DNA from: a phage
Assembly (NCBI GenBank): GCA_014435945.1
Contig: GCA_014435945.1_4088.1
Length of the DNA stretch: 64,000 nt
Strand: one strand, 5' to 3'
A program made the position numbers and the translations under genes. The notes beneath the pieces were generated by a model. That model made no database searches and was not told where the DNA came from. It was given only the letters and a program-made list of their open reading frames with translations. The stretch's first letter is position 1. The number at the start of each line of letters is the position of its first letter. Positions 25,917-48,285 of this stretch are shown one piece after another.

Positions 25917-26040
25917 CAGGTACTACTTTGATCGAATAGAGTTTAGTACTGAGTGCTGTTGATGAAAAGACCAGCGACCGTTGCATATGACTGCGATAGA
26001 GAGAAACCGAGCAACCCGCTTTCGCTCTCTAAATTTTGGT

Positions 26041-26069
26041 ACAGGAAAGATCCGTCCAAAATTTGAGAA
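26041..26069 (+). repeat. direct repeat copy 2 (core CGTCCAAAATTTGAGAA)
   Basis: ACAGGAAAGATCCGTCCAAAATTTGAGAA; core identical to copy 1. Confidence 0.7.
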
Positions 26070-26108
26070 ATTCGCAATTCGATAATATCCGATGCCATCA
26101 TCGTCAAG

Positions 26109-26131
26109 AGAGACTTAATTGTCTCTTTTTT
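26109..26131 (+). terminator. intrinsic terminator (short stem)
   Basis: AGAGAC-ttaatt-GTCTCT followed by TTTTT. Confidence 0.45.
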
Positions 26132-26137
26132 ATTACC

Positions 26138-26161
26138 TTCATTCCCCTGCGGGGGGATGAA
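26138..26161 (+). other. stable GC-rich hairpin with UGCG loop
   Basis: TTCATTCCCC-tgcg-GGGGGATGAA (10 bp with G-U pairs); no following T-run. Confidence 0.5.
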
Positions 26162-26271
26162 ATAGTCCTCAACAAATCCCGTCAAGCTTTTAAAGTACAT
26201 TATCATTTTCAGAAGGAACTAGTTTACGAAGTAAACGTAGTGACTTCTTGAGTTACGAGAGAACGAAGTGA

Positions 26272-26700
26272 ATGAGTAACACAACGAAAATATCCAATAC
26301 ATCTGAATTAACACAAATGTTATTCAAAGAATATTTTGAGTATCAAATCAAAAGCGATCATAATTTGGTTCAGACCTATTTGAAGAGAATCAAAGATCCA
26401 TTAAGTTTAAACAAAGGAACTGAATTTTATAACAGTATTTTAGATTTTATTAATTTAGTTCATACAAACAGACCTATTGTAGTTTTCTTCTTTGATAAAT
26501 CAATTCCTGTAGAAGTTCCTGATAATGTATTTTTTGTTACAGAAACTGATTTAAGTAATCAAAGTACTGTAAGTAGATTAAGGAATTGCTTACTTATAAT
26601 TTGTGATTCTTCATTATATAACAATAGAGTACTATGGAATAGAAGTAAGAGAAATGCAGTTTCAGAAATGAATCCTGAAGTTACCTTTATTATTAACTAA
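26272..26700 (+). CDS. hypothetical protein
   Basis: 142-aa ORF, very AT-rich. Confidence 0.45.
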   Translation: MSNTTKISNTSELTQMLFKEYFEYQIKSDHNLVQTYLKRIKDPLSLNKGTEFYNSILDFINLVHTNRPIVVFFFDKSIPVEVPDNVFFVTETDLSNQSTVSRLRNCLLIICDSSLYNNRVLWNRSKRNAVSEMNPEVTFIIN

Positions 26701-26730
26701 ATACCATAGAATAACTCTAAGGAGAGATTT

Positions 26731-27171
26731 ATGGAAAATATTAATGATTTGCGACATGTAATGGACTTTATTGGAGATACTGAAGAAGATAGTTCTTATG
26801 ATGAAGTACTACTTACATTTATTGAGAATAGTTTATTTTTAAGTGCTGCTGCTCACAACTGGCATTTACAGAGCCATTTCTACACTAAGCACCTACAATT
26901 GGATGAACTATACAAAGAGTTACCTGAGTACGTTGATGCATTTGTAGAGGGTATTATGAACACTCGCGGTGCATTGCAGGTAGGTACTGGTAACAGTTAT
27001 CGTTTTACCCCTATCGAGGATTGTGTACCAATTCTTGAAGAATATGTTAGTCAATGTAAAGCCATTCATGCTATGCTTGAAGAGGCTGAAGACTATGGCA
27101 GTACTAACACGCTAGAAGACATTATGAGTTTTTGTGAAGGAATGCTTTACAAACTCAAAGTTTTACAATAA
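26731..27171 (+). CDS. hypothetical protein (possible Dps/ferritin-like fold)
   Basis: AHNWHLQ ... HLQLDELY ... EEAEDYGSTNTLEDIM loosely recalls Dps helices; weak. Confidence 0.35.
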   Translation: MENINDLRHVMDFIGDTEEDSSYDEVLLTFIENSLFLSAAAHNWHLQSHFYTKHLQLDELYKELPEYVDAFVEGIMNTRGALQVGTGNSYRFTPIEDCVPILEEYVSQCKAIHAMLEEAEDYGSTNTLEDIMSFCEGMLYKLKVLQ

Positions 27172-27178
27172 AATATAT

Positions 27179-27208
27179 GGAGAGTCATTGTGACTCTCCT
27201 TTTCTTTT
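27179..27208 (+). terminator. intrinsic terminator
   Basis: GGAGAGTCA-ttg-TGACTCTCC followed by TTTTCTTTT then GGAG. Confidence 0.75.
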
Positions 27209-27219
27209 GGAGAATATAT

Positions 27220-27573
27220 ATGAGTGATTACCGCGTAACATCTGGACTAATGGCCCGTCTTATTGAAGCAGTTCCTGAAGATGATTATGAAGCTATTTCA
27301 GATCGTCTTTTTGACGCAGATTCTAAACTCCATATTACATATGATGGTGCATTGATTTTCAGTACTGATATTGATATGTCTAGTTATGAATTTGAGATTT
27401 CTTTTGGTAACAAACTAACTACTGAAGAATTCGCTCAAAAATGTGAGCGTGAAGGGTTGTGTATTGATATTAGTTCAGTTCAGCCATATACATCACTGTG
27501 GTATGATGGTGCTGATAGTCCAATGTCTACTACATCTTTACAGGATTTTCTAAATGCAAATCAAAAAGATTAA
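27220..27573 (+). CDS. hypothetical protein
   Basis: ATG 7 nt after GGAG; the ORF-track GTG at 27190 lies inside the terminator hairpin. Confidence 0.5.
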   Translation: MSDYRVTSGLMARLIEAVPEDDYEAISDRLFDADSKLHITYDGALIFSTDIDMSSYEFEISFGNKLTTEEFAQKCEREGLCIDISSVQPYTSLWYDGADSPMSTTSLQDFLNANQKD

Positions 27574-38709: not shown

Positions 38710-39018
38710 ATGACTATGACCGTTAAACTACTAAACATCAACAGCGTTGGCCCAGTACTAGCAATTCTACAAAATGATGCACCAGAAGCAGTAGTAGTTA
38801 ACTACCCAGCCCAGCTAGGTACTGACGAACAAGGTGAAATCATTCTACGTGATTACCTAGAATTCATTAGTTCTGAAAAAGGCGTTATTTTTTATAAATC
38901 CAACATCATTAGCATCAGCGATGCAAACCCTGCACTAGTTGAAGCTTATGTTGAAGCAATCAAGGCTATCGAAGAAAAACCAGCACTGATTGTTCCTGAT
39001 AACAAAATCATTCTATAA
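38710..39018 (+). CDS. hypothetical protein
   Basis: ATG after AAAAGGA (ORF track gave TTG at 38701). Confidence 0.45.
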   Translation: MTMTVKLLNINSVGPVLAILQNDAPEAVVVNYPAQLGTDEQGEIILRDYLEFISSEKGVIFYKSNIISISDANPALVEAYVEAIKAIEEKPALIVPDNKIIL

Positions 39019-41558: not shown

Positions 41559-44222
41559 ATGGCAGGAGATCTACTCTCACCTGGCGTTTCCATTTCAGTA
41601 ACTGATGAAAGTATGAGTACTGCTGCTGCTCCTGGCACAGTACCACTATTTGTAATCGCTACTGCTGAAGACAAACTTGTTCCTGGTAGCAGTGCAATCG
41701 CTGCTGGAACCACTAAAGCAAACGCTGGTAAACTACAGCTACTAACATCACAGAAAAGCTCACTAGATACATTTGGCTCACCAATTTTCCAAATGAACAA
41801 TGGTTCAGTTGTTCAAGGTGACGAACTAAACGAATATGGTCTACATGCTGTATATTCTTATCTAGGCATCACCAACCGTGCATATGTTATTCGTGCTGAT
41901 ATCGATTTAGCTCAACTATCACCAAGTGCAACTGCACCAACTGGTCCAGTACCAAATGGTACTCTATGGTTTGATGCTGCTCAATCACAAATTGAAGCTT
42001 ATGTTGCTAAGAAAGACAGCCCAAGCAGTTTCTATGACTGGCAATTAAAGCCTGTTACAATCGTAAGTTCTGAAGAAGTTGACGATGTAAGCCTAGTTGG
42101 TCTAAACGTTGATGATCTCGTTCTACGTTACAAACCAAGTAATGGTCAAATGCTTATGTACAAACGTGCAGCATCTGGTCTAGTACAGGTTGAAACTTAC
42201 CTATCACCAATCAACAAAGTTCCAGTTGGTTCAACTGTTGAACAAGGTAACGTATGGATTCGTGATGGTTATACTCAAAATGGTTCAAACTATTTTGGTA
42301 CTCGTTTTGTTCTAAAACGTTATGCATCTCTAACTCAAGTTTGGAATATCGTTCCAGCATATACTGGTAATTCTTTCCAAGAAGTTGAAGCTAAGAGTGG
42401 TGTACTAAACAACAGTTATATTGCTTGCCGTTTTGATGATGATAGTAAGAGTTTCTCTTTCTATATTCAAAGTGCAAAACTATCAGCAATTAGTGCTCCA
42501 GCAGTACCACTAGGTGAAACTGTTATTGAGCAAGCTGGTGAAAATAGTTATTTGACTTTCGCTTACCTAAACAAATCTGTTAAAGTACTTGCAGTACCAC
42601 AAGGTGGCGTAATTAATACTCAAACTATCATCGATAATCTAAATGTTAGTGCTGATCTTATCAATGATGGATTCAAATTCAAACGTGAATCTAATGGCGG
42701 TTTGGTAGTTACAAACACCAAAGGTTATAGCTTTAAAGTTACCCAAAGCGGTGATGATATTTTTGCAGCGAATGAACTAGCTAAACTAACTGTAGATAGT
42801 AACAACTATTCTCTAGTTAACGTTAATAACTTACGTGTTAGCTCTTCTGTTCCACGTAGTATTGCTAAAGACGGTACTATTTGGTATGATTTCGGTAATT
42901 CCGATAACCTAACTGTTACCATGTACATTGCAGATGTTGCAAATGACGAATGGGATCTAGTACAAGAAGATAACAAATATGTTCAAGTTGATGAACCTGC
43001 GGCAGACCGTCTAATTTGGGTACGCCCTCTATCTCAAGGAATTGATGGTTATGATTTCTATCGTAACGTTGATGGTGAGTGGGTTAAACTAGACAATACT
43101 GACCAAAGTACTCTAAACGGTATGATTTTCGCTGACTTTAACTTCCCTGAACAAGTTGCTTCTGCTGCTCTTTATCAGAATGGTATGCTTGCAATTGACC
43201 TCGGTAATACCGAAGGTGTTGTTAAGAAAATGGTTAATGGTCAATGGCAAGTTGTTAGTGGTGTTAGTCTTGATGGTGCAGGTCTATTCGGTCGTGCAGC
43301 ACAACGCAAACTAATCGTTGAAGCACTAGCTGCTGTAATCATCGGTAATGATGATATCCGTTCTGAATTCATCAACTTTAACCTAATCTGTGTTCCTGGT
43401 TATGTAGAAACTCTAGATGAATGTATTACCCTAAACACTGATCGTAAAGAAACAGCGTTTATCGTAACTGATGTACCTGCTCGTTTGAACCCAACCGGAA
43501 ACGGTAGTGCAGTTCAAGAATGGGCTACCAACGCAAACAACGCACCAAGTAATGGTTCAGTAGGCCGTACTTCTGCATATGATTATGCTGCTCAGTACAT
43601 GGGCTGGTGTTTAAGTACTAACGTTGATGGTGAAGAAGTTGCAGTGCCAGGCAGTACTGTTGCAATGCGTACCTATGCGTACAGTGATAGTGTTAGTTAT
43701 GTGTGGTATCCACCTGCTGGTACTACTCGTGGTGTTGTAACCAACGCTGCAAGTACTGGTTTCATTAATAGTGAAGGTGAATATCAACCAGTAGTATACA
43801 ACCAAGGTCAACGTGACGTGATGTATACCAACAACATTAACCCAATTGCAATGCGTCCTAACCGTGGCTTGCTAGTATATGGTGATAAAACACTATCTGC
43901 TAACCAAACCTCTGCACTAAGCCGTGTTAACGTTGCTCGTTTGGTTGTTTACATTCGTCGTCAACTAGAAATCATCTCTGAACCATTCCTATTCCGTTTG
44001 AATACTCCAAGTACTCGTCAGGAATTCAGTGGTGTAGTGAATAGCTTCCTAGCTGAAATCGTTCAACAACAAGGTCTATATAACTTCGCAGTAGTTTGTG
44101 ACGAAAGTAACAACACTTCTGAACGTATTGACCGTAACGAACTTTGGATGGATATTGCAATCCAACCTACCAAGTCTATCAACTTCATTTACGTACCTAT
44201 TCGTATTGAAAAGACTCAATAA
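41559..44222 (+). CDS. tail sheath protein
   Basis: 887 aa; conserved sheath C-terminal domain (GLLVYGDKTLS ... RVNVARLVVYIRRQLE ... FAVVCDESNNT ... WMDIAIQP). Confidence 0.85.
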   Translation: MAGDLLSPGVSISVTDESMSTAAAPGTVPLFVIATAEDKLVPGSSAIAAGTTKANAGKLQLLTSQKSSLDTFGSPIFQMNNGSVVQGDELNEYGLHAVYSYLGITNRAYVIRADIDLAQLSPSATAPTGPVPNGTLWFDAAQSQIEAYVAKKDSPSSFYDWQLKPVTIVSSEEVDDVSLVGLNVDDLVLRYKPSNGQMLMYKRAASGLVQVETYLSPINKVPVGSTVEQGNVWIRDGYTQNGSNYFGTRFVLKRYASLTQVWNIVPAYTGNSFQEVEAKSGVLNNSYIACRFDDDSKSFSFYIQSAKLSAISAPAVPLGETVIEQAGENSYLTFAYLNKSVKVLAVPQGGVINTQTIIDNLNVSADLINDGFKFKRESNGGLVVTNTKGYSFKVTQSGDDIFAANELAKLTVDSNNYSLVNVNNLRVSSSVPRSIAKDGTIWYDFGNSDNLTVTMYIADVANDEWDLVQEDNKYVQVDEPAADRLIWVRPLSQGIDGYDFYRNVDGEWVKLDNTDQSTLNGMIFADFNFPEQVASAALYQNGMLAIDLGNTEGVVKKMVNGQWQVVSGVSLDGAGLFGRAAQRKLIVEALAAVIIGNDDIRSEFINFNLICVPGYVETLDECITLNTDRKETAFIVTDVPARLNPTGNGSAVQEWATNANNAPSNGSVGRTSAYDYAAQYMGWCLSTNVDGEEVAVPGSTVAMRTYAYSDSVSYVWYPPAGTTRGVVTNAASTGFINSEGEYQPVVYNQGQRDVMYTNNINPIAMRPNRGLLVYGDKTLSANQTSALSRVNVARLVVYIRRQLEIISEPFLFRLNTPSTRQEFSGVVNSFLAEIVQQQGLYNFAVVCDESNNTSERIDRNELWMDIAIQPTKSINFIYVPIRIEKTQ

Positions 44223-44229
44223 AACACTA

Positions 44230-44255
44230 AGGGAACCTTTTGGTTCCCTTTTTTA
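44230..44255 (+). terminator. intrinsic terminator
   Basis: AGGGAACC-tttt-GGTTCCCT followed by TTTTTT. Confidence 0.75.
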
Positions 44256-44305
44256 TTGTTTAAAATTAAATACGTTATGTTATTAATTCAACGATCAGGA
44301 ATAAT

Positions 44306-44452
44306 ATGGAAGAAATACTTAAAAAAACATTACAAGATGTAAGTAAAACTGTAGCAACACAGGACGATGCCGTAAAAATCCTTAAAGCTTTTATACAAAA
44401 TTTGGAACATTGTCGGTATAATTCGAGAATACAATGTTTACACAAATGGTAA
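44306..44452 (+). CDS. small hypothetical ORF
   Basis: 48-aa ORF, ATG 6 nt after AGGA; below ORF-track cutoff. Confidence 0.25.
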   Translation: MEEILKKTLQDVSKTVATQDDAVKILKAFIQNLEHCRYNSRIQCLHKW

Positions 44453-44609
44453 ATGGTCGGTTGGTGTAAACTATACAGATCATAAACAAGAAAAAAAGTA
44501 CTTGTATTGTGTGAATATAGATTGGTTTCCTGTTGATGAGATACTTCAATAAAAGTGTAAGTAATAGATAAATAATATAAAGATGTCATTCCATAACAGG
44601 AGAATATAA

Positions 44610-45296
44610 ATGGCTACAATGCTTGATCGATATGGCGTTCCGCTCGCTGGCGGTGGTCGTATCTCTATGAAACAACCTAAAGCAAAATATAAATTCCGTG
44701 TTGTTTTCTTTGGCTTCGGTGCTAACGACGATGGCAATATGATTACCCTAGATACCAACACCGTTGGTGCTGTATCTGTATCACATGAAAACGTCACTGT
44801 GCATAGTTATAACAGTTCTGCTCACTATAAAGGTAAGTATACTTGGGATACTATTGATGTGGCTTTCCGTGATTCAGTTGGTAATGCTTCTGCTAAAGCT
44901 CTTTATAACCAAATGCGTAAAGAATTTAACTATTACAGTCAAGAATCTCGTATGACTGATTCCCAGTTCAAATTTGAAATGTGGATTCAAGAACTAGATG
45001 GTTCTAATAGTGAAAACACTTCTAACCTTTTTGAAGGTACTTTGAGTACTTGGGTATGTCAAGGCTGCTTTATTGAATCTAGTAACTTTGGTGACTGGGA
45101 TTATTCCTCAAGTGAAGCACAAGTTATTTCTATGACAATTCAACCAGACGGCTGTGCAAAACTCGGTCCTAATGGTGAAGCGTTCGGTGATGAAATTACT
45201 GGTTTCGGTAACCCATCCACTGCTACCTCTATTAGTGGTGCACAAACCAACATTAGTAGTACTACTCTACCAGATAGTAACTTCTACGAAAATTAA
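44610..45296 (+). CDS. putative tail tube protein, paralog 1
   Basis: Directly downstream of sheath; N-terminus DRYGVPLAGGGRISMKQPKAKYKFRVVFFGFG shared with next ORF; fold not verified. Confidence 0.45.
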   Translation: MATMLDRYGVPLAGGGRISMKQPKAKYKFRVVFFGFGANDDGNMITLDTNTVGAVSVSHENVTVHSYNSSAHYKGKYTWDTIDVAFRDSVGNASAKALYNQMRKEFNYYSQESRMTDSQFKFEMWIQELDGSNSENTSNLFEGTLSTWVCQGCFIESSNFGDWDYSSSEAQVISMTIQPDGCAKLGPNGEAFGDEITGFGNPSTATSISGAQTNISSTTLPDSNFYEN

Positions 45297-45312
45297 TTTT
45301 TCTTTTAAACGT

Positions 45313-45341
45313 AAGCCTCGAACTAGTTCGGGGCTTTTTTT
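45313..45341 (+). terminator. intrinsic terminator
   Basis: AAGCCTCGAAC ... GTTCGGGGCTT hairpin followed by T7. Confidence 0.65.
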
Positions 45342-45385
45342 ATGCTAAATAAAGTATAATACCTTATAAAATAAAAGAGGTTGCT

Positions 45386-46162
45386 ATGGCAAATAACATG
45401 ATTAATAAATATGGCGTTCCTCTACCATCAGGACGTAACCGTTCAATGTTACAACCGAAAGCAAAATACAAATTTCGTGTTATTGTATATAATTTCGGTA
45501 CTGATATAGATGAGCGTGATCACATTGCATTAGATGTTGATAAAGTTGATAGACCTACTGTTACTTTCAGTACTCATAAACTATATCAATTTACAACAAA
45601 TACATCTTACATTGGTAGTCACGATTGGGACCCAATTACTTTAACTATCCGTGATTCAGTTGGTAATGCATCAGCAAAAGCCTTGTCACGACAATTACAG
45701 AAACAATTAGATTTTCAACGAAGAATTACTTCCAGAACTGACCATGATTATGGTTCATATAAGTTCGGAATTGTCATTCAGATGTTGAATGGTCGCAACT
45801 CTGATGATACACTAGAAGACTTGGGAAGAAACACATTAGTTAATGCAACAACTGCCGCTACCAACAATACTGGATTAGTCAACGCTGTTGATCAGTTCAT
45901 TGGTGGTTCATCATACAATAGTGCTGGCGTTATGGAGTACTTTGTACTAACAGGATGTGTTATACAAAATATATCATATGATTCACTTGACTATAGTTCA
46001 AGTTCTCCTGTTGAAATGGTTATTACAATAAAACCTGATAATTGTATCCAATTCGATAATATCGAAGAAATGTACAGTACTAGAATAAATTCACTTTTAC
46101 CTGAAAACGTAAACCAAGGATTAGATATCATTGACCGTGTTTTCGGTAGCATTGGATTATAA
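45386..46162 (+). CDS. putative tail tube protein, paralog 2
   Basis: N-terminus NKYGVPLPSGRNRSMLQPKAKYKFRVIVYNFG paralogous to 44610; ATG after AAAGAGG. Confidence 0.45.
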   Translation: MANNMINKYGVPLPSGRNRSMLQPKAKYKFRVIVYNFGTDIDERDHIALDVDKVDRPTVTFSTHKLYQFTTNTSYIGSHDWDPITLTIRDSVGNASAKALSRQLQKQLDFQRRITSRTDHDYGSYKFGIVIQMLNGRNSDDTLEDLGRNTLVNATTAATNNTGLVNAVDQFIGGSSYNSAGVMEYFVLTGCVIQNISYDSLDYSSSSPVEMVITIKPDNCIQFDNIEEMYSTRINSLLPENVNQGLDIIDRVFGSIGL

Positions 46163-46173
46163 GGAGATAACCC

Positions 46174-47268
46174 ATGAGTGATTTTTTTGATTCATTTGTC
46201 AGTACTGGGACTAGTATAGTTAATGGTGTTATTGATAATATCAACATCATTAGAGAACCAGCTTTTGAGAATTATAACGCTGCACAACGTGTGTTTGGTA
46301 CAGCAGGTGAAATGGGTTTTTCATTCTATAATTTACCAAAATTTAAGAACAGTTTTATTATCGAATTCGTACTAACCCCGTTCGCAAAGAATTTTATTAA
46401 AACTCAACTCCCAGATACACATACTGATTTTGATGTTAATAATGTATCGTGCTTTGTAAAAGATGTAACACTTCCTAGTTTTTCTTTTAGTGTTGAAACC
46501 GTAAACCAATACAACAAAAAACGTTTAGTTACTGGTGATATTGTTTATAAACCCAGTAATGTTGTTTTCTATGATACTGTTGATGGTGCTGGATATCTCC
46601 TAATGGACGCATATCGTAAGTTCTACTATGGTGACTTCTTTGACAAGAACCCACAATCTTACCGAAATGACGTACTCAGTACACCAGAAAATTTCAATGG
46701 TTTAGGTGGAAACTGGGGTCGTTCTGTAATGAACAATGGTAACTACGACAACCAGTACTTTTTCAAATCAATTAATATCTATGAAATTGATAATGAAACC
46801 TATACAGTTCATAACATGATAAATGTATTCATCGAAGATATACAATTAGAAACTAAATCTATGGAAAGTGAAGGTGACCCAGCACTATTATCTTTGACTA
46901 TGCGTTATGAAGCGTGTAACAACTTTGGTCCTGAAGGGTACTTGAGTATTGGTGTCCCTACAATGGAAATTGCACAACTCATCACCGATACTGAAGGTCT
47001 TGGTGTGAGTGGATTCTTTAAGTACTTTGGTGAACTTGATGACAAAACTAAAGGAATTTCGACAGTTGGTAAAATTATCCGAGCAGGAACATCAGTTAGT
47101 GATATAATCAGTAGTGCTGGTGATATCCTTCGTGGTGACATTACTCCTGATACCATCCGAAACATAGGTTCCGCAGTGACAAGAGGTGCAAATGCTATTG
47201 GTTTAGGAAGCATCGTTTCTTCTGCAAGCTCAAAATTCGGATTAGGTAATATATTAGGAGATTTTTAA
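46174..47268 (+). CDS. hypothetical virion protein
   Basis: 364 aa, ATG after AAGGAGA; Gly/Ser-rich C-terminus; within tail module. Confidence 0.5.
   Translation: MSDFFDSFVSTGTSIVNGVIDNINIIREPAFENYNAAQRVFGTAGEMGFSFYNLPKFKNSFIIEFVLTPFAKNFIKTQLPDTHTDFDVNNVSCFVKDVTLPSFSFSVETVNQYNKKRLVTGDIVYKPSNVVFYDTVDGAGYLLMDAYRKFYYGDFFDKNPQSYRNDVLSTPENFNGLGGNWGRSVMNNGNYDNQYFFKSINIYEIDNETYTVHNMINVFIEDIQLETKSMESEGDPALLSLTMRYEACNNFGPEGYLSIGVPTMEIAQLITDTEGLGVSGFFKYFGELDDKTKGISTVGKIIRAGTSVSDIISSAGDILRGDITPDTIRNIGSAVTRGANAIGLGSIVSSASSKFGLGNILGDF

Positions 47269-48285
<1,017 letters not shown>

Follow-up and report, generated by a model that had tools for sequence, protein, structure and literature searches.

Three tandem tail-tube family genes behind the sheath gene of an Asteriusvirus-type Escherichia coli phage, and a proposed division of labour among them

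The window, a stretch of phage DNA of 64,000 nucleotides, was found to share 99.6% DNA identity with Escherichia phage vB_Ec-M-J, and 37 phage records were related to the query region at a coverage of at least 80%. Judged by these sequence matches, its source is a known giant E. coli phage of the genus Asteriusvirus, in the RaK2/121Q group. The locus described here is the tail-tube module of this RaK2-like jumbo myovirus and contains the following features, in which the three tube-family genes are called A, B and C:

41559..44222, + strand: tail sheath gene, 887 aa, T4 gp18-like (Pfam Phage_sheath_1C, 1.7e-14; phrog_10581 'tail sheath' over the full length)
44229..44250, + strand: intrinsic-terminator-like hairpin and T run after the sheath gene (9-bp stem with 5 G-C pairs, then TTTTATTGTT)
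44306..44452, + strand: short ORF of 48 codons between the sheath gene and A, its significance doubtful (hypothetical EcMJ_283 in vB_Ec-M-J)
44568..44574, + strand: ATAAATA, candidate late-promoter element upstream of tube A
44610..45296, + strand: tube A, 228 aa, proposed major tail tube protein and gp19 equivalent (phrog_4542 'tail tube protein', 6.9e-86)
45313..45336, + strand: intrinsic-terminator-like hairpin and T run after tube A (10-bp stem with 5 G-C pairs, then TTTTTATGCT)
45345..45351, + strand: CTAAATA, candidate late-promoter element upstream of tube B, inferred only from the motif class shared with the sheath gene and A
45386..46162, + strand: tube B, 258 aa, diverged tube paralogue, proposed to be a low-copy specialised tube-fold protein (phrog_4542, 1e-80)
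46174..47268, + strand: protein C, 364 aa, third tube-family protein (phrog_13438 'tail tube protein', 2e-225; phrog_4542, 8e-6)
47269..47697, + strand: T4 gp4-like head-completion gene, directly 3' of C and in the same unit as B and C (phrog_218 'head closure', 1.2e-39; Pfam Tn7_TnsA-like_N, 8.6e-17; T4 gp4-like in the 121Q annotation)

A preliminary description of this DNA had reported two ORFs with related N-termini downstream of an 887-aa sheath gene, each behind its own terminator and Shine-Dalgarno sequence, and this layout was borne out. The sheath ORF, with its Pfam match, lies upstream of both genes, the two hairpins precede A and B respectively, and the Shine-Dalgarno sequences are GGAG (44599-44602) for A and GAGG (45377-45380) for B. 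BLASTP alignment of A with B gave 32% identity over 230 columns with an E value of 2e-35, far beyond chance, and in the N-terminal stretch, MLDRYGVPLAGGGRISMKQPKAKYKFRVVFFGFG in A and MINKYGVPLPSGRNRSMLQPKAKYKFRVIVYNFG in B, 21 of 34 residues are identical. The N-terminal motif as first written was one dot short before 'FG', a trivial slip. An 887-aa sheath corresponds to the 'type 4' multidomain sheath that has been catalogued for Asteriusvirus SP27 and RaK2 (PMC9230969).

Between the sheath gene and A there is a spacer of 387 nt with the 48-codon ORF (44306-44452), which had been passed over previously; this ORF is annotated in vB_Ec-M-J and not in 121Q. At the corresponding junction PA5oct has a homing endonuclease, and Atu_ph07 has four genes.

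The hairpins at 44229-44250 and 45313-45336 are the strongest two of the region. Equivalents of the post-sheath hairpin are present in 121Q, RaK2, CBB and Vibrio phage 2.275.O, the post-A hairpin is kept in the same four phages, and a similar hairpin follows the single tube gene of PA5oct. A hairpin scan of the region found no terminator 3' of B, a point absent from the preliminary description. The exact T4 late-promoter motif TATAAATA was considered and rejected as the promoter here, as no copies were found. In its place [AC]TAAATA is proposed as a candidate promoter motif: [AC]TAAATAA precedes the gp13-like gene, the sheath gene, A and B and is absent ahead of C and the gp4-like gene, and CTAAATA occurs nine times on the plus strand and not at all on the minus strand. 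Gene A thus makes up a single-gene unit bounded by a promoter-like motif and a terminator, and B, C and the gp4-like gene, 0-11 nt apart, form one unit headed by B. This layout is kept in 121Q, RaK2, CBB and the Vibrio phage; in the last of these two foreign genes lie between A and B, yet B remains with C. Since B has a promoter-like motif of its own, the terminator after A would not by itself reduce B expression.

Both A and B are tube-fold proteins homologous to gp19. AlphaFold2 models were obtained with a pLDDT of 84 for A and 81 for B, and both show the tube fold, a beta-sandwich that is flanked by a helix and carries a long hairpin. Foldseek searches of the PDB with either model returned T4 gp19, T4 gp3, the KP1 tube and the PVC/AFP tubes at E values of about 1e-7 to 1e-10, with target TM scores of 0.7-0.87 for targets that included the KP1 tube (9ev2), T4 gp19 (5w5f), cyanophage A-1(L) (8kee) and PVC (6j0b). 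At the profile level both proteins resemble gp19/Hcp-type tube proteins (phrog_4542 / phrog_45); the A/B family aligned with T4 gp19 at an hhalign probability of 91% (E 9e-7, 139 columns), and T4 gp19 itself matches phrog_4542 at 5e-10. The suggestion that both proteins are tube-like therefore held, and the fold predictions gave no indication that either fails to be so. Pfam contained no family for A, B or C, and PDB sequence searches with A, B, C, the A/B profile and the C profile returned only chance matches to TRPV1 and lipase (E >0.2) and no solved structure from the A/B family. B differs from A in a conserved insertion of about 32 aa (about residues 143-176), which is kept across B orthologues and is predicted as two low-confidence helices, and in a C-terminal amphipathic helix that the model places at residues 240-253. 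Taken together, A and B are real, anciently duplicated tail-tube genes.

A third tube-family gene, C, had not been noticed in the preliminary description. Its start lies 11 nt 3' of B with GGAG ahead of it, and the protein has a tube domain at approximately residues 36-246 followed by a Gly/Ser-rich C-terminal region of about 115 aa. The C family aligned with the A/B family at an hhalign probability of 98.4% (E 9.5e-15), and C has a weak match (1.9e-4) to phrog_45, the family that holds gp19, gp54 and gp3 together. Orthologues of C are found 3' of the tube gene in PA5oct, Atu_ph07, Vibrio 2.275.O and SCTP-2. An HMM search of the structural region of about 160 kb revealed no tube-family genes beyond A, B and C.

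The orthologues of A, B and C are EcMJ_284/285/286 in vB_Ec-M-J, gp552/553/554 in 121Q, ORF042/043/044 in RaK2 and CBB_205/206/207 in CBB. The order sheath, A, B, C, gp4-like gene, with the tube gene beside the sheath gene in the tail module, is common to 121Q, RaK2, CBB and the window, and the locus shows no substantive difference from those of the sequenced RaK2-like phages. In the existing annotation of vB_Ec-M-J each of the three proteins is a 'tail tube protein', and in RaK2-like phages the orthologues go under the name 'tail tube protein' or 'structural protein'. The three tandem genes are thus already known and labelled, with no distinction made among them; we found no publication that assigns separate roles to the tube paralogues, and literature searches turned up no RaK2-like tail studied by cryo-EM. 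In the 2013 RaK2 paper the A and B orthologues were not recognised as tube proteins and gp106w/gp107w were proposed instead. The orthologues of these two candidates were not tube-like in the HMM search of the same region of about 160 kb.

Codon usage was compared by CAI, a proxy only for abundance, with the capsid and sheath genes as the reference set and with ranks taken among 77 ORFs; A scored 0.688 (rank 3), B 0.447 (rank 53) and C 0.503 (rank 32). Seven of the 14 Arg codons in B are AGA or CGA, as against none of 34 in the sheath gene. CAI is also higher for A than for B in 121Q, RaK2 and Vibrio 2.275.O, with a small difference in RaK2 (0.673 vs 0.628). A is more conserved than B. It is 100% identical in vB_Ec-M-J, and the identities for A and B respectively are 97 and 93% with 121Q, 78 and 75% with RaK2, and 49 and 37% with the Vibrio phage. 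The accompanying tree was constructed by neighbour joining and carries no support values.

It had been proposed that the tube pair would be called into question if only one of the proteins were present in virions, and this is not the case, as mass spectrometry of RaK2 virions identified the orthologues of A and B alike. In the published, non-quantitative data gp042 (A) was represented by 5 peptides with 23% coverage and gp043 (B) by 3 peptides with 17%. The published CBB virion proteome, also non-quantitative, gives 6 for CBB_205 (A) and 9 for CBB_207 (C) and does not list CBB_206 (B); since the sheath is missing from the same list, the absence of B from it is weak evidence. In PA5oct the tube protein and C are flagged ESI-MS/MS.

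PA5oct and Atu_ph07 each have a single tube gene together with C and a gp4-like gene. The PA5oct tube protein aligned with A over its full length (36%, 134 bits) and with B over the N-terminal 139 residues only (83 bits), and A therefore appears to be the ancestral-like copy, to which the single tube of PA5oct and Atu_ph07 is closer. The codon bias, the operon structure and these one-tube relatives argue that A is an ordinary major tube protein and B a minor component. On balance we favour, with some confidence, a reading in which A is the tube-building subunit, with B and C as low-copy proteins of the same fold positioned at an end of the tube. A would form stacked hexameric rings inside the 887-aa sheath, as gp19 does in T4. 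B would have arisen by an old tube-gene duplication in the RaK2-like/Vibrio lineage, retaining the tube fold and N-terminal arm while gaining the conserved insertion of about 32 aa and an amphipathic helix in place of the C-terminal arm. It would be produced in smaller amounts, along with C and the gp4-like head-completion protein, and may form a specialised ring, present in few copies, at one of the two tube ends, with a job like that of T4 gp3, gp54/gp48 or Afp5/Pvc5. Copy number, ring formation and position in the tail are what we infer for A, B and C from the observations above.

As to which end of the tube B would occupy, the capsid-proximal end next to C is put forward tentatively, and the baseplate end is considered only slightly less likely. 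B and C share a gene cluster with the neck gene (gp13-like) and with the sheath, tube and gp4-like genes, and the hub and tape-measure genes, near which an initiator gene would be expected, lie 40-60 kb away by one estimate and 65-70 kb away in vB_Ec-M-J by another; this neighbourhood leans towards the capsid end, and it is gene neighbourhood that would place B and C as terminators there. A gp15-like gene is also present (EcMJ_314, phrog_227 at 6e-18). In phiKp24, SPP1 and 80alpha the C-terminal arm of the tube protein reaches the ring above, and its replacement in B may point the same way, the polarity in this argument being borrowed from unrelated tube families. Foldseek searches of the PDB and BFVD did not tell tube, terminator and initiator apart: A and B match gp19 and gp3 about equally, and the match to the confirmed gp3 chain (9mkb_AC) is no better than that to gp19. 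B and C were also considered as specific homologues of gp3 or of gp54/gp48, and neither identification was supported; hhalign comparisons of the A/B and C families with single T4 gp3, gp48, gp54 and gp15 sequences were non-significant, with probabilities of at most 1% against gp3 and at most 1.6% against gp54/gp48.

The same data bear on whether A and B could both be bulk tube proteins, in mixed rings, alternating rings or successive segments. RaK2 virions hold both proteins at similar coverage, the A/B pair is kept across all RaK2-like genera, two likely interface elements, the N-terminal arm and the RDSVGNASAKAL segment, show strong conservation from A to B, and a mixed tube has a precedent in SPP1 gp17.1/gp17.1* (PMC8718954). 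A heteromeric tube of this kind is nevertheless improbable, given codon-bias ranks of 3 and 53 out of 77, the location of B in a unit with C and the gp4-like gene and not with A, the faster divergence of B, the listing of A and C but not B in the CBB virion proteome, and the sufficiency of one tube gene in PA5oct and Atu_ph07, which have a homologous sheath, C and gp4-like gene. If it were true, RaK2-like phages would have a two-paralogue tail tube, undescribed for any contractile tail, and the insertion in B would provide periodic sites on the tube surface or lumen.

We regard it as very unlikely that the roles are the reverse of those proposed, with B as the major tube protein and A as a minor initiator or terminator ring. 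Such a reversal would fit the tube fold of both proteins, the greater size of B and the expectation of the RaK2 authors that a larger sheath would go with a larger tube protein; however, it is A that the single tube of PA5oct and Atu_ph07 resembles in length and sequence, that has sheath-like codon bias, that is more conserved and that appears in the RaK2 proteome as well as in that of CBB, where B is not listed. Equally unlikely is a B that bears no load and is carried incidentally, as an assembly factor or as a decoy against DSR2-type sensing of tube proteins. Related phages without B still make tails, the codon adaptation of B is low, and tube proteins are known to trigger DSR2 (abstract of PMC11850899). 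The RaK2 orthologue is, however, present in purified virions, B has long been conserved across at least nine host genera together with its insertion and C-terminal helix, its gene stays closely linked to the structural gene C, and the family matches obtained for B include none that is defence-related.

For the preferred reading, in which A is the bulk subunit, the main value lies in a tidier annotation that sets the probable bulk subunit A apart from the probable low-copy B and C, and these assignments would be of direct use to anyone solving a RaK2-like tail by cryo-EM. The specialisation of a recently duplicated tube protein would represent a younger analogue of the ancient split among T4 gp19, gp3 and gp54. 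Other practical or conceptual impact is small.

The preliminary description also assumed one tube gene for most contractile-tail phages and took a duplicated tube as a hint of a non-standard tail, and neither of these points was supported by comparison with known systems. T4 also has gp48, and the eCIS have Afp1/5/7 and Pvc1/5/7. T4 gp19, gp54 (tube initiator) and gp3 (tube terminator) are paralogues within a single PHROG family, phrog_45, and their roles are summarised in PMC8718954. Extra tube paralogues are thus the norm in T4 and the eCIS, and no unusual tail architecture is needed to account for A and B. The proposed arrangement is similar to that of T4 in having one major tube protein and several low-copy tube-fold paralogues that start or cap the tube; the A and B models superpose on gp19 (5w5f) and gp3 (9mkb_AC), and both genomes keep dNMP kinase, tube-fold genes and gp4 in one neighbourhood. 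It differs from T4 in that B is a recent gp19-type duplicate (32% identity to A), in contrast to gp3 and gp54, which have only a very remote relationship to gp19, and in that the minor paralogues of T4 lie apart from one another, gp48/54 close to hub genes and gp3 close to gp2/gp4, whereas those of the window belong to a tandem trio after the sheath gene.

The eCIS (Afp1/Afp5/Afp7 and Pvc1/Pvc5/Pvc7) likewise combine a major tube protein with a paralogue of similar size that forms a single specialised ring, and Foldseek pairs A and B with AFP and PVC tube, baseplate and cap chains; their paralogue lies at the baseplate end, however, whereas B leans to the other, sequence similarity is undetectable and gene order is different. 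In phiKp24 (gp119, 8bfk) and phiKZ (9xpf) the tube gene is also 3' of the sheath gene, and the proteins share the tube core fold with long terminal arms for inter-subunit contacts, but they belong to another tube family of about 290 aa with weak fold matches (rank 33-40, TM about 0.4), and for phiKp24 a single tube gene is described. A similar module is also found in PA5oct, Atu_ph07 and Salicola SCTP-2, where a homologous tube gene is followed by C and then by a gp4-like gene. PA5oct and Atu_ph07 have one gp19-type tube gene each, the RaK2-like phages and Vibrio 2.275.O have two, and SCTP-2 has three, so that across the RaK2/PA5oct/Atu_ph07/SCTP-2 supergroup the number of tube genes ranges from 1 to 3 while C is constant.

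The region was 99.6% identical to Escherichia phage vB_Ec-M-J and approximately 87% identical to 121Q and PBECO4, all three belonging to the genus Asteriusvirus of RaK2-like jumbo myoviruses. Three consecutive genes behind the tail sheath gene, here called tube A, tube B and protein C, are each annotated as 'tail tube protein' in vB_Ec-M-J and RefSeq 121Q and are followed by a T4 gp4-like head-completion gene; the same arrangement is found in RaK2 (ORF042-044) and CBB (CBB_205-207). The feature is real, and the locus is an ordinary tail module known at annotation level: public records already contain the genes with their 'tail tube' label, their PHROG families and the detection of orthologues in virions. 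In the literature searched, no paper gave A, B and C separate roles and none reported a structure of a RaK2-like tail. The features are as follows.

41559-44222, + strand: tail sheath, 887 aa (Pfam Phage_sheath_1C, 1.7e-14; full-length match to phrog_10581)
44229-44250, + strand: strong terminator-like hairpin and T run
44610-45296, + strand: tube A, 228 aa, downstream of the sheath gene
45313-45336, + strand: strong terminator-like hairpin and T run
45386-46162, + strand: tube B, 258 aa, downstream of the sheath gene
46174-47268, + strand: protein C, 364 aa
47269-47697, + strand: gp4-like head-completion protein

The preliminary description had placed two related ORFs after an 887-aa sheath, each behind its own terminator and Shine-Dalgarno sequence, and it was confirmed in its coordinates, the sheath family, the hairpins ahead of both ORFs and the Shine-Dalgarno sequences upstream of both start codons. 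By sequence, A and B are clear paralogues: BLASTP gave 32% identity (E 2e-35), identity rises to 62% across the N-terminal 34 residues, and the two proteins share a further block, RDSVGNASAKAL, exactly. Absent from that description were C, the related gene directly after B, and the lack of a terminator downstream of B. The 887-aa sheath has already been catalogued as a 'type 4' sheath (PMC9230969). The sheath-A spacer (44223-44609, 387 nt) holds a 48-codon ORF (44306-44452) that is annotated in vB_Ec-M-J only. Elsewhere the sheath-tube junction contains a Hef-like homing endonuclease gene (PA5oct) or four genes (Atu_ph07), and in Vibrio phage 2.275.O the A and B genes are separated by a pectin-lyase-fold gene and an ORF in reverse orientation; the junctions beside the tube gene are apparent hot spots for insertion.

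Pfam and PDB sequence searches with A and B returned no matches, and no PDB entry had detectable sequence similarity to A, B or C. Both A and B matched phrog_4542 'tail tube protein' (1e-80 to 1e-86). Searching 1.84 billion cluster representatives with a profile yielded 1630 relatives, from which deep alignments for structure prediction were built, and the resulting AlphaFold2 models (pLDDT 84 for A, 81 for B) were confident in the core. Foldseek aligned both with solved tail tubes (E 1e-7 to 5e-10), those of Klebsiella phage KP1, T4 gp19 (5w5f), cyanophage A-1(L), PVC and AFP, and also with the tube terminator of T4, gp3 (9mkb_AC, a chain verified to be gp3). The A/B family profile matched the T4 gp19 sequence with 91% probability (E 9e-7), and phrog_4542 matched gp19 itself at 5e-10. 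On the basis of the phrog_4542, AlphaFold2/Foldseek and gp19 profile matches, A and B are members of the gp19-type tube family; the earlier proposal that both are tube-like thus held when structure prediction and comparison were run, both models matching the T4 gp19 and PVC/AFP tubes.

Four independent proxies (codon adaptation, layout, conservation and proteomics of orthologues) point to A as the bulk subunit. With the major capsid and sheath genes as reference set, A had a codon adaptation index (CAI) of 0.688 and ranked third among the 77 window ORFs; C came at rank 32 (0.503) and B at rank 53 (0.447). Half of the Arg codons in B are AGA or CGA, neither of which occurs in the sheath gene. 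CAI is also higher for A than for B in 121Q, RaK2 and the Vibrio phage, the gap in RaK2 being small. Like the sheath gene, A forms a unit of its own, with a promoter-like [AC]TAAATA ahead of it and a terminator behind, whereas B, C and the gp4-like gene lie 0-11 nt apart with no terminator between them. This layout is kept in 121Q, RaK2, CBB and the Vibrio phage, where two foreign genes part A from B and B is still joined to C; the single tube gene of PA5oct also has a hairpin downstream. In each comparison made, from near to distant relatives, A is better conserved than B (97 vs 93%, 78 vs 75%, 49 vs 37%), and reversed roles, with B as bulk tube and A as minor protein, are unlikely. In published virion proteomics A orthologues were found in RaK2 and CBB, B in RaK2 only and C in CBB only, which fits a lower abundance of B and C, although these data are non-quantitative and even the sheath is missing from the CBB list. 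A non-structural or decoy role for B, detected as it is in RaK2 virions, is likewise unlikely.

A heteromeric tube built from both A and B would agree with the similar RaK2 peptide counts for the two proteins, but is improbable given their different codon bias, the operon structure and the existence of relatives with a single tube gene. Nor does a non-standard tail architecture follow from two tube genes, as had been suggested, because complex contractile tails normally contain several tube-fold paralogues.

The T4 late-promoter octamer TATAAATA has no copies in the 64 kb (8.4 +/- 2.9 expected), and all nine copies of CTAAATA are on the + strand. [AC]TAAATAA lies upstream of a gp13-like gene, the sheath gene, A (44568-44574) and B (45345-45351), and is a candidate late promoter, to be recognised by the gp55-like sigma factor of this phage. 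The highest codon adaptation in the window, sheath aside, belongs to a 102-aa ORF at 38710-39018 (CAI 0.738), labelled 'methylamine utilization' in vB_Ec-M-J and hypothetical in 121Q; its product may be a small, very highly expressed and possibly structural protein.

With A as tblastn query, two places were hit in every RaK2-like phage (hosts Escherichia, Klebsiella, Salmonella, Erwinia, Cronobacter, Serratia, Yersinia and Pectobacterium) and in Vibrio phage 2.275.O, and a single place in the PA5oct group, Atu_ph07, XacN1 and RAS14. By locus inspection and an HMM scan, PA5oct and Atu_ph07 have one tube gene, C and a gp4-like gene; C accompanies two tube genes in the RaK2-like phages and Vibrio phage 2.275.O, and three in Salicola SCTP-2. 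The sole PA5oct tube protein aligned with A over its full length (36%, 134 bits) and with B over 139 residues only (83 bits). A tree built by neighbour joining, which carries no support values, grouped the A clade with the B clade as sisters inside the single-copy outgroups. B carries an insertion of approximately 32 residues, absent from A and the single-copy proteins and strongly conserved among B orthologues (consensus roughly T-A-x-T-N-N-x-G-L-V-N-x-x-D-x-x-x-G-G). Its C-terminus is an amphipathic helix (...LDIIDRVFGSIGL), unlike that of A, a Ser/Thr-rich tail with a conserved NF[YF] motif at the end. SCTP-2 (stretch L006, 7001-10525) has tandem gp19-type paralogues of 215, 260 and 259 aa, then C-like and gp4-like genes; since these paralogues branch away from the RaK2-like A and B clades in the same tree, their sequences suggest a separate expansion.

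C gave a match to phrog_13438 'tail tube protein' and a weak one to phrog_4542. When C orthologues were aligned and compared with the A/B family, residues 36-246, approximately the extent of the tube domain, matched at 98.4% probability (E 9.5e-15), and the C-terminal 115 or so residues are Gly/Ser/Ile-rich with repeated G-x-G and (I/L)FG-like motifs. PA5oct (492 aa), Atu_ph07 (328 aa), Vibrio phage 2.275.O and SCTP-2 all keep a C orthologue beside the tube gene. No tube-family members other than A, B and C were detectable in approximately 160 kb spanning the structural region. The gp4-like protein matches Pfam Tn7_TnsA-like_N (8.6e-17) and endonuclease PHROGs, and is therefore predicted to have a restriction-endonuclease-like fold.

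The authors of the RaK2 study (2013) proposed gp106w/gp107w, very abundant in RaK2 virions (53-55% coverage), as the tail tube. Their orthologues and one further structural gene lie outside the window.

25985-27289 of vB_Ec-M-J stretch L009: EcMJ_351/352, orthologues of gp106w/gp107w, a paralogous pair of 229 and 199 aa
23733-25076 of vB_Ec-M-J stretch L008: EcMJ_314, 447 aa (phrog_227 'tail sheath stabilizer', 6e-18)

We rejected EcMJ_351/352 as tube proteins, as they belong to phrog_9326 (head and packaging) and were not hit by the tube profile; they are probably capsid-associated. EcMJ_314 is annotated as a second 'tail sheath protein', which we also rejected, its phrog_227 match making it gp15-like. 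The CBB virion proteome also includes a 'major tail protein', CBB_112, and hair-like whiskers of approximately 120 nm have been described along the tail sheath of several RaK2-like phages including Asteriusvirus (CBB, PhAPEC6, fEgEco12).

We propose that A would polymerise into the tube, while B and C would be low-copy tube-fold proteins forming specialised rings at one tube end. Sequence profiles did not link B or C specifically to gp3, gp48 or gp54, Foldseek matches do not tell gp19-like from gp3-, gp48- or gp54-like roles for B, and the vB_Ec-M-J structural regions searched contained no separate gene resembling gp3, gp48 or gp54. We lean towards the capsid-proximal end for B, because the genes of B and C sit among those for neck, sheath, tube and head completion and a long way from those for the hub and tape measure, much as T4 gene 3 adjoins genes 1, 2 and 4, and because, by analogy, it is specifically the C-terminal arm that B has replaced, the arm that extends to the ring above in the phiKp24, SPP1 and 80alpha tubes. 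The scheme resembles the standard logic of contractile tails, with T4 as model: gp48 and gp54 hexamers start the tube, gp19 builds it, and a gp3 hexamer caps it and is then bound by gp15 (PMC8718954). T4 gp19, gp54 and gp3 share one PHROG family, and a gp15-like gene is present here as EcMJ_314, far larger (447 aa) than T4 gp15 (272 aa).
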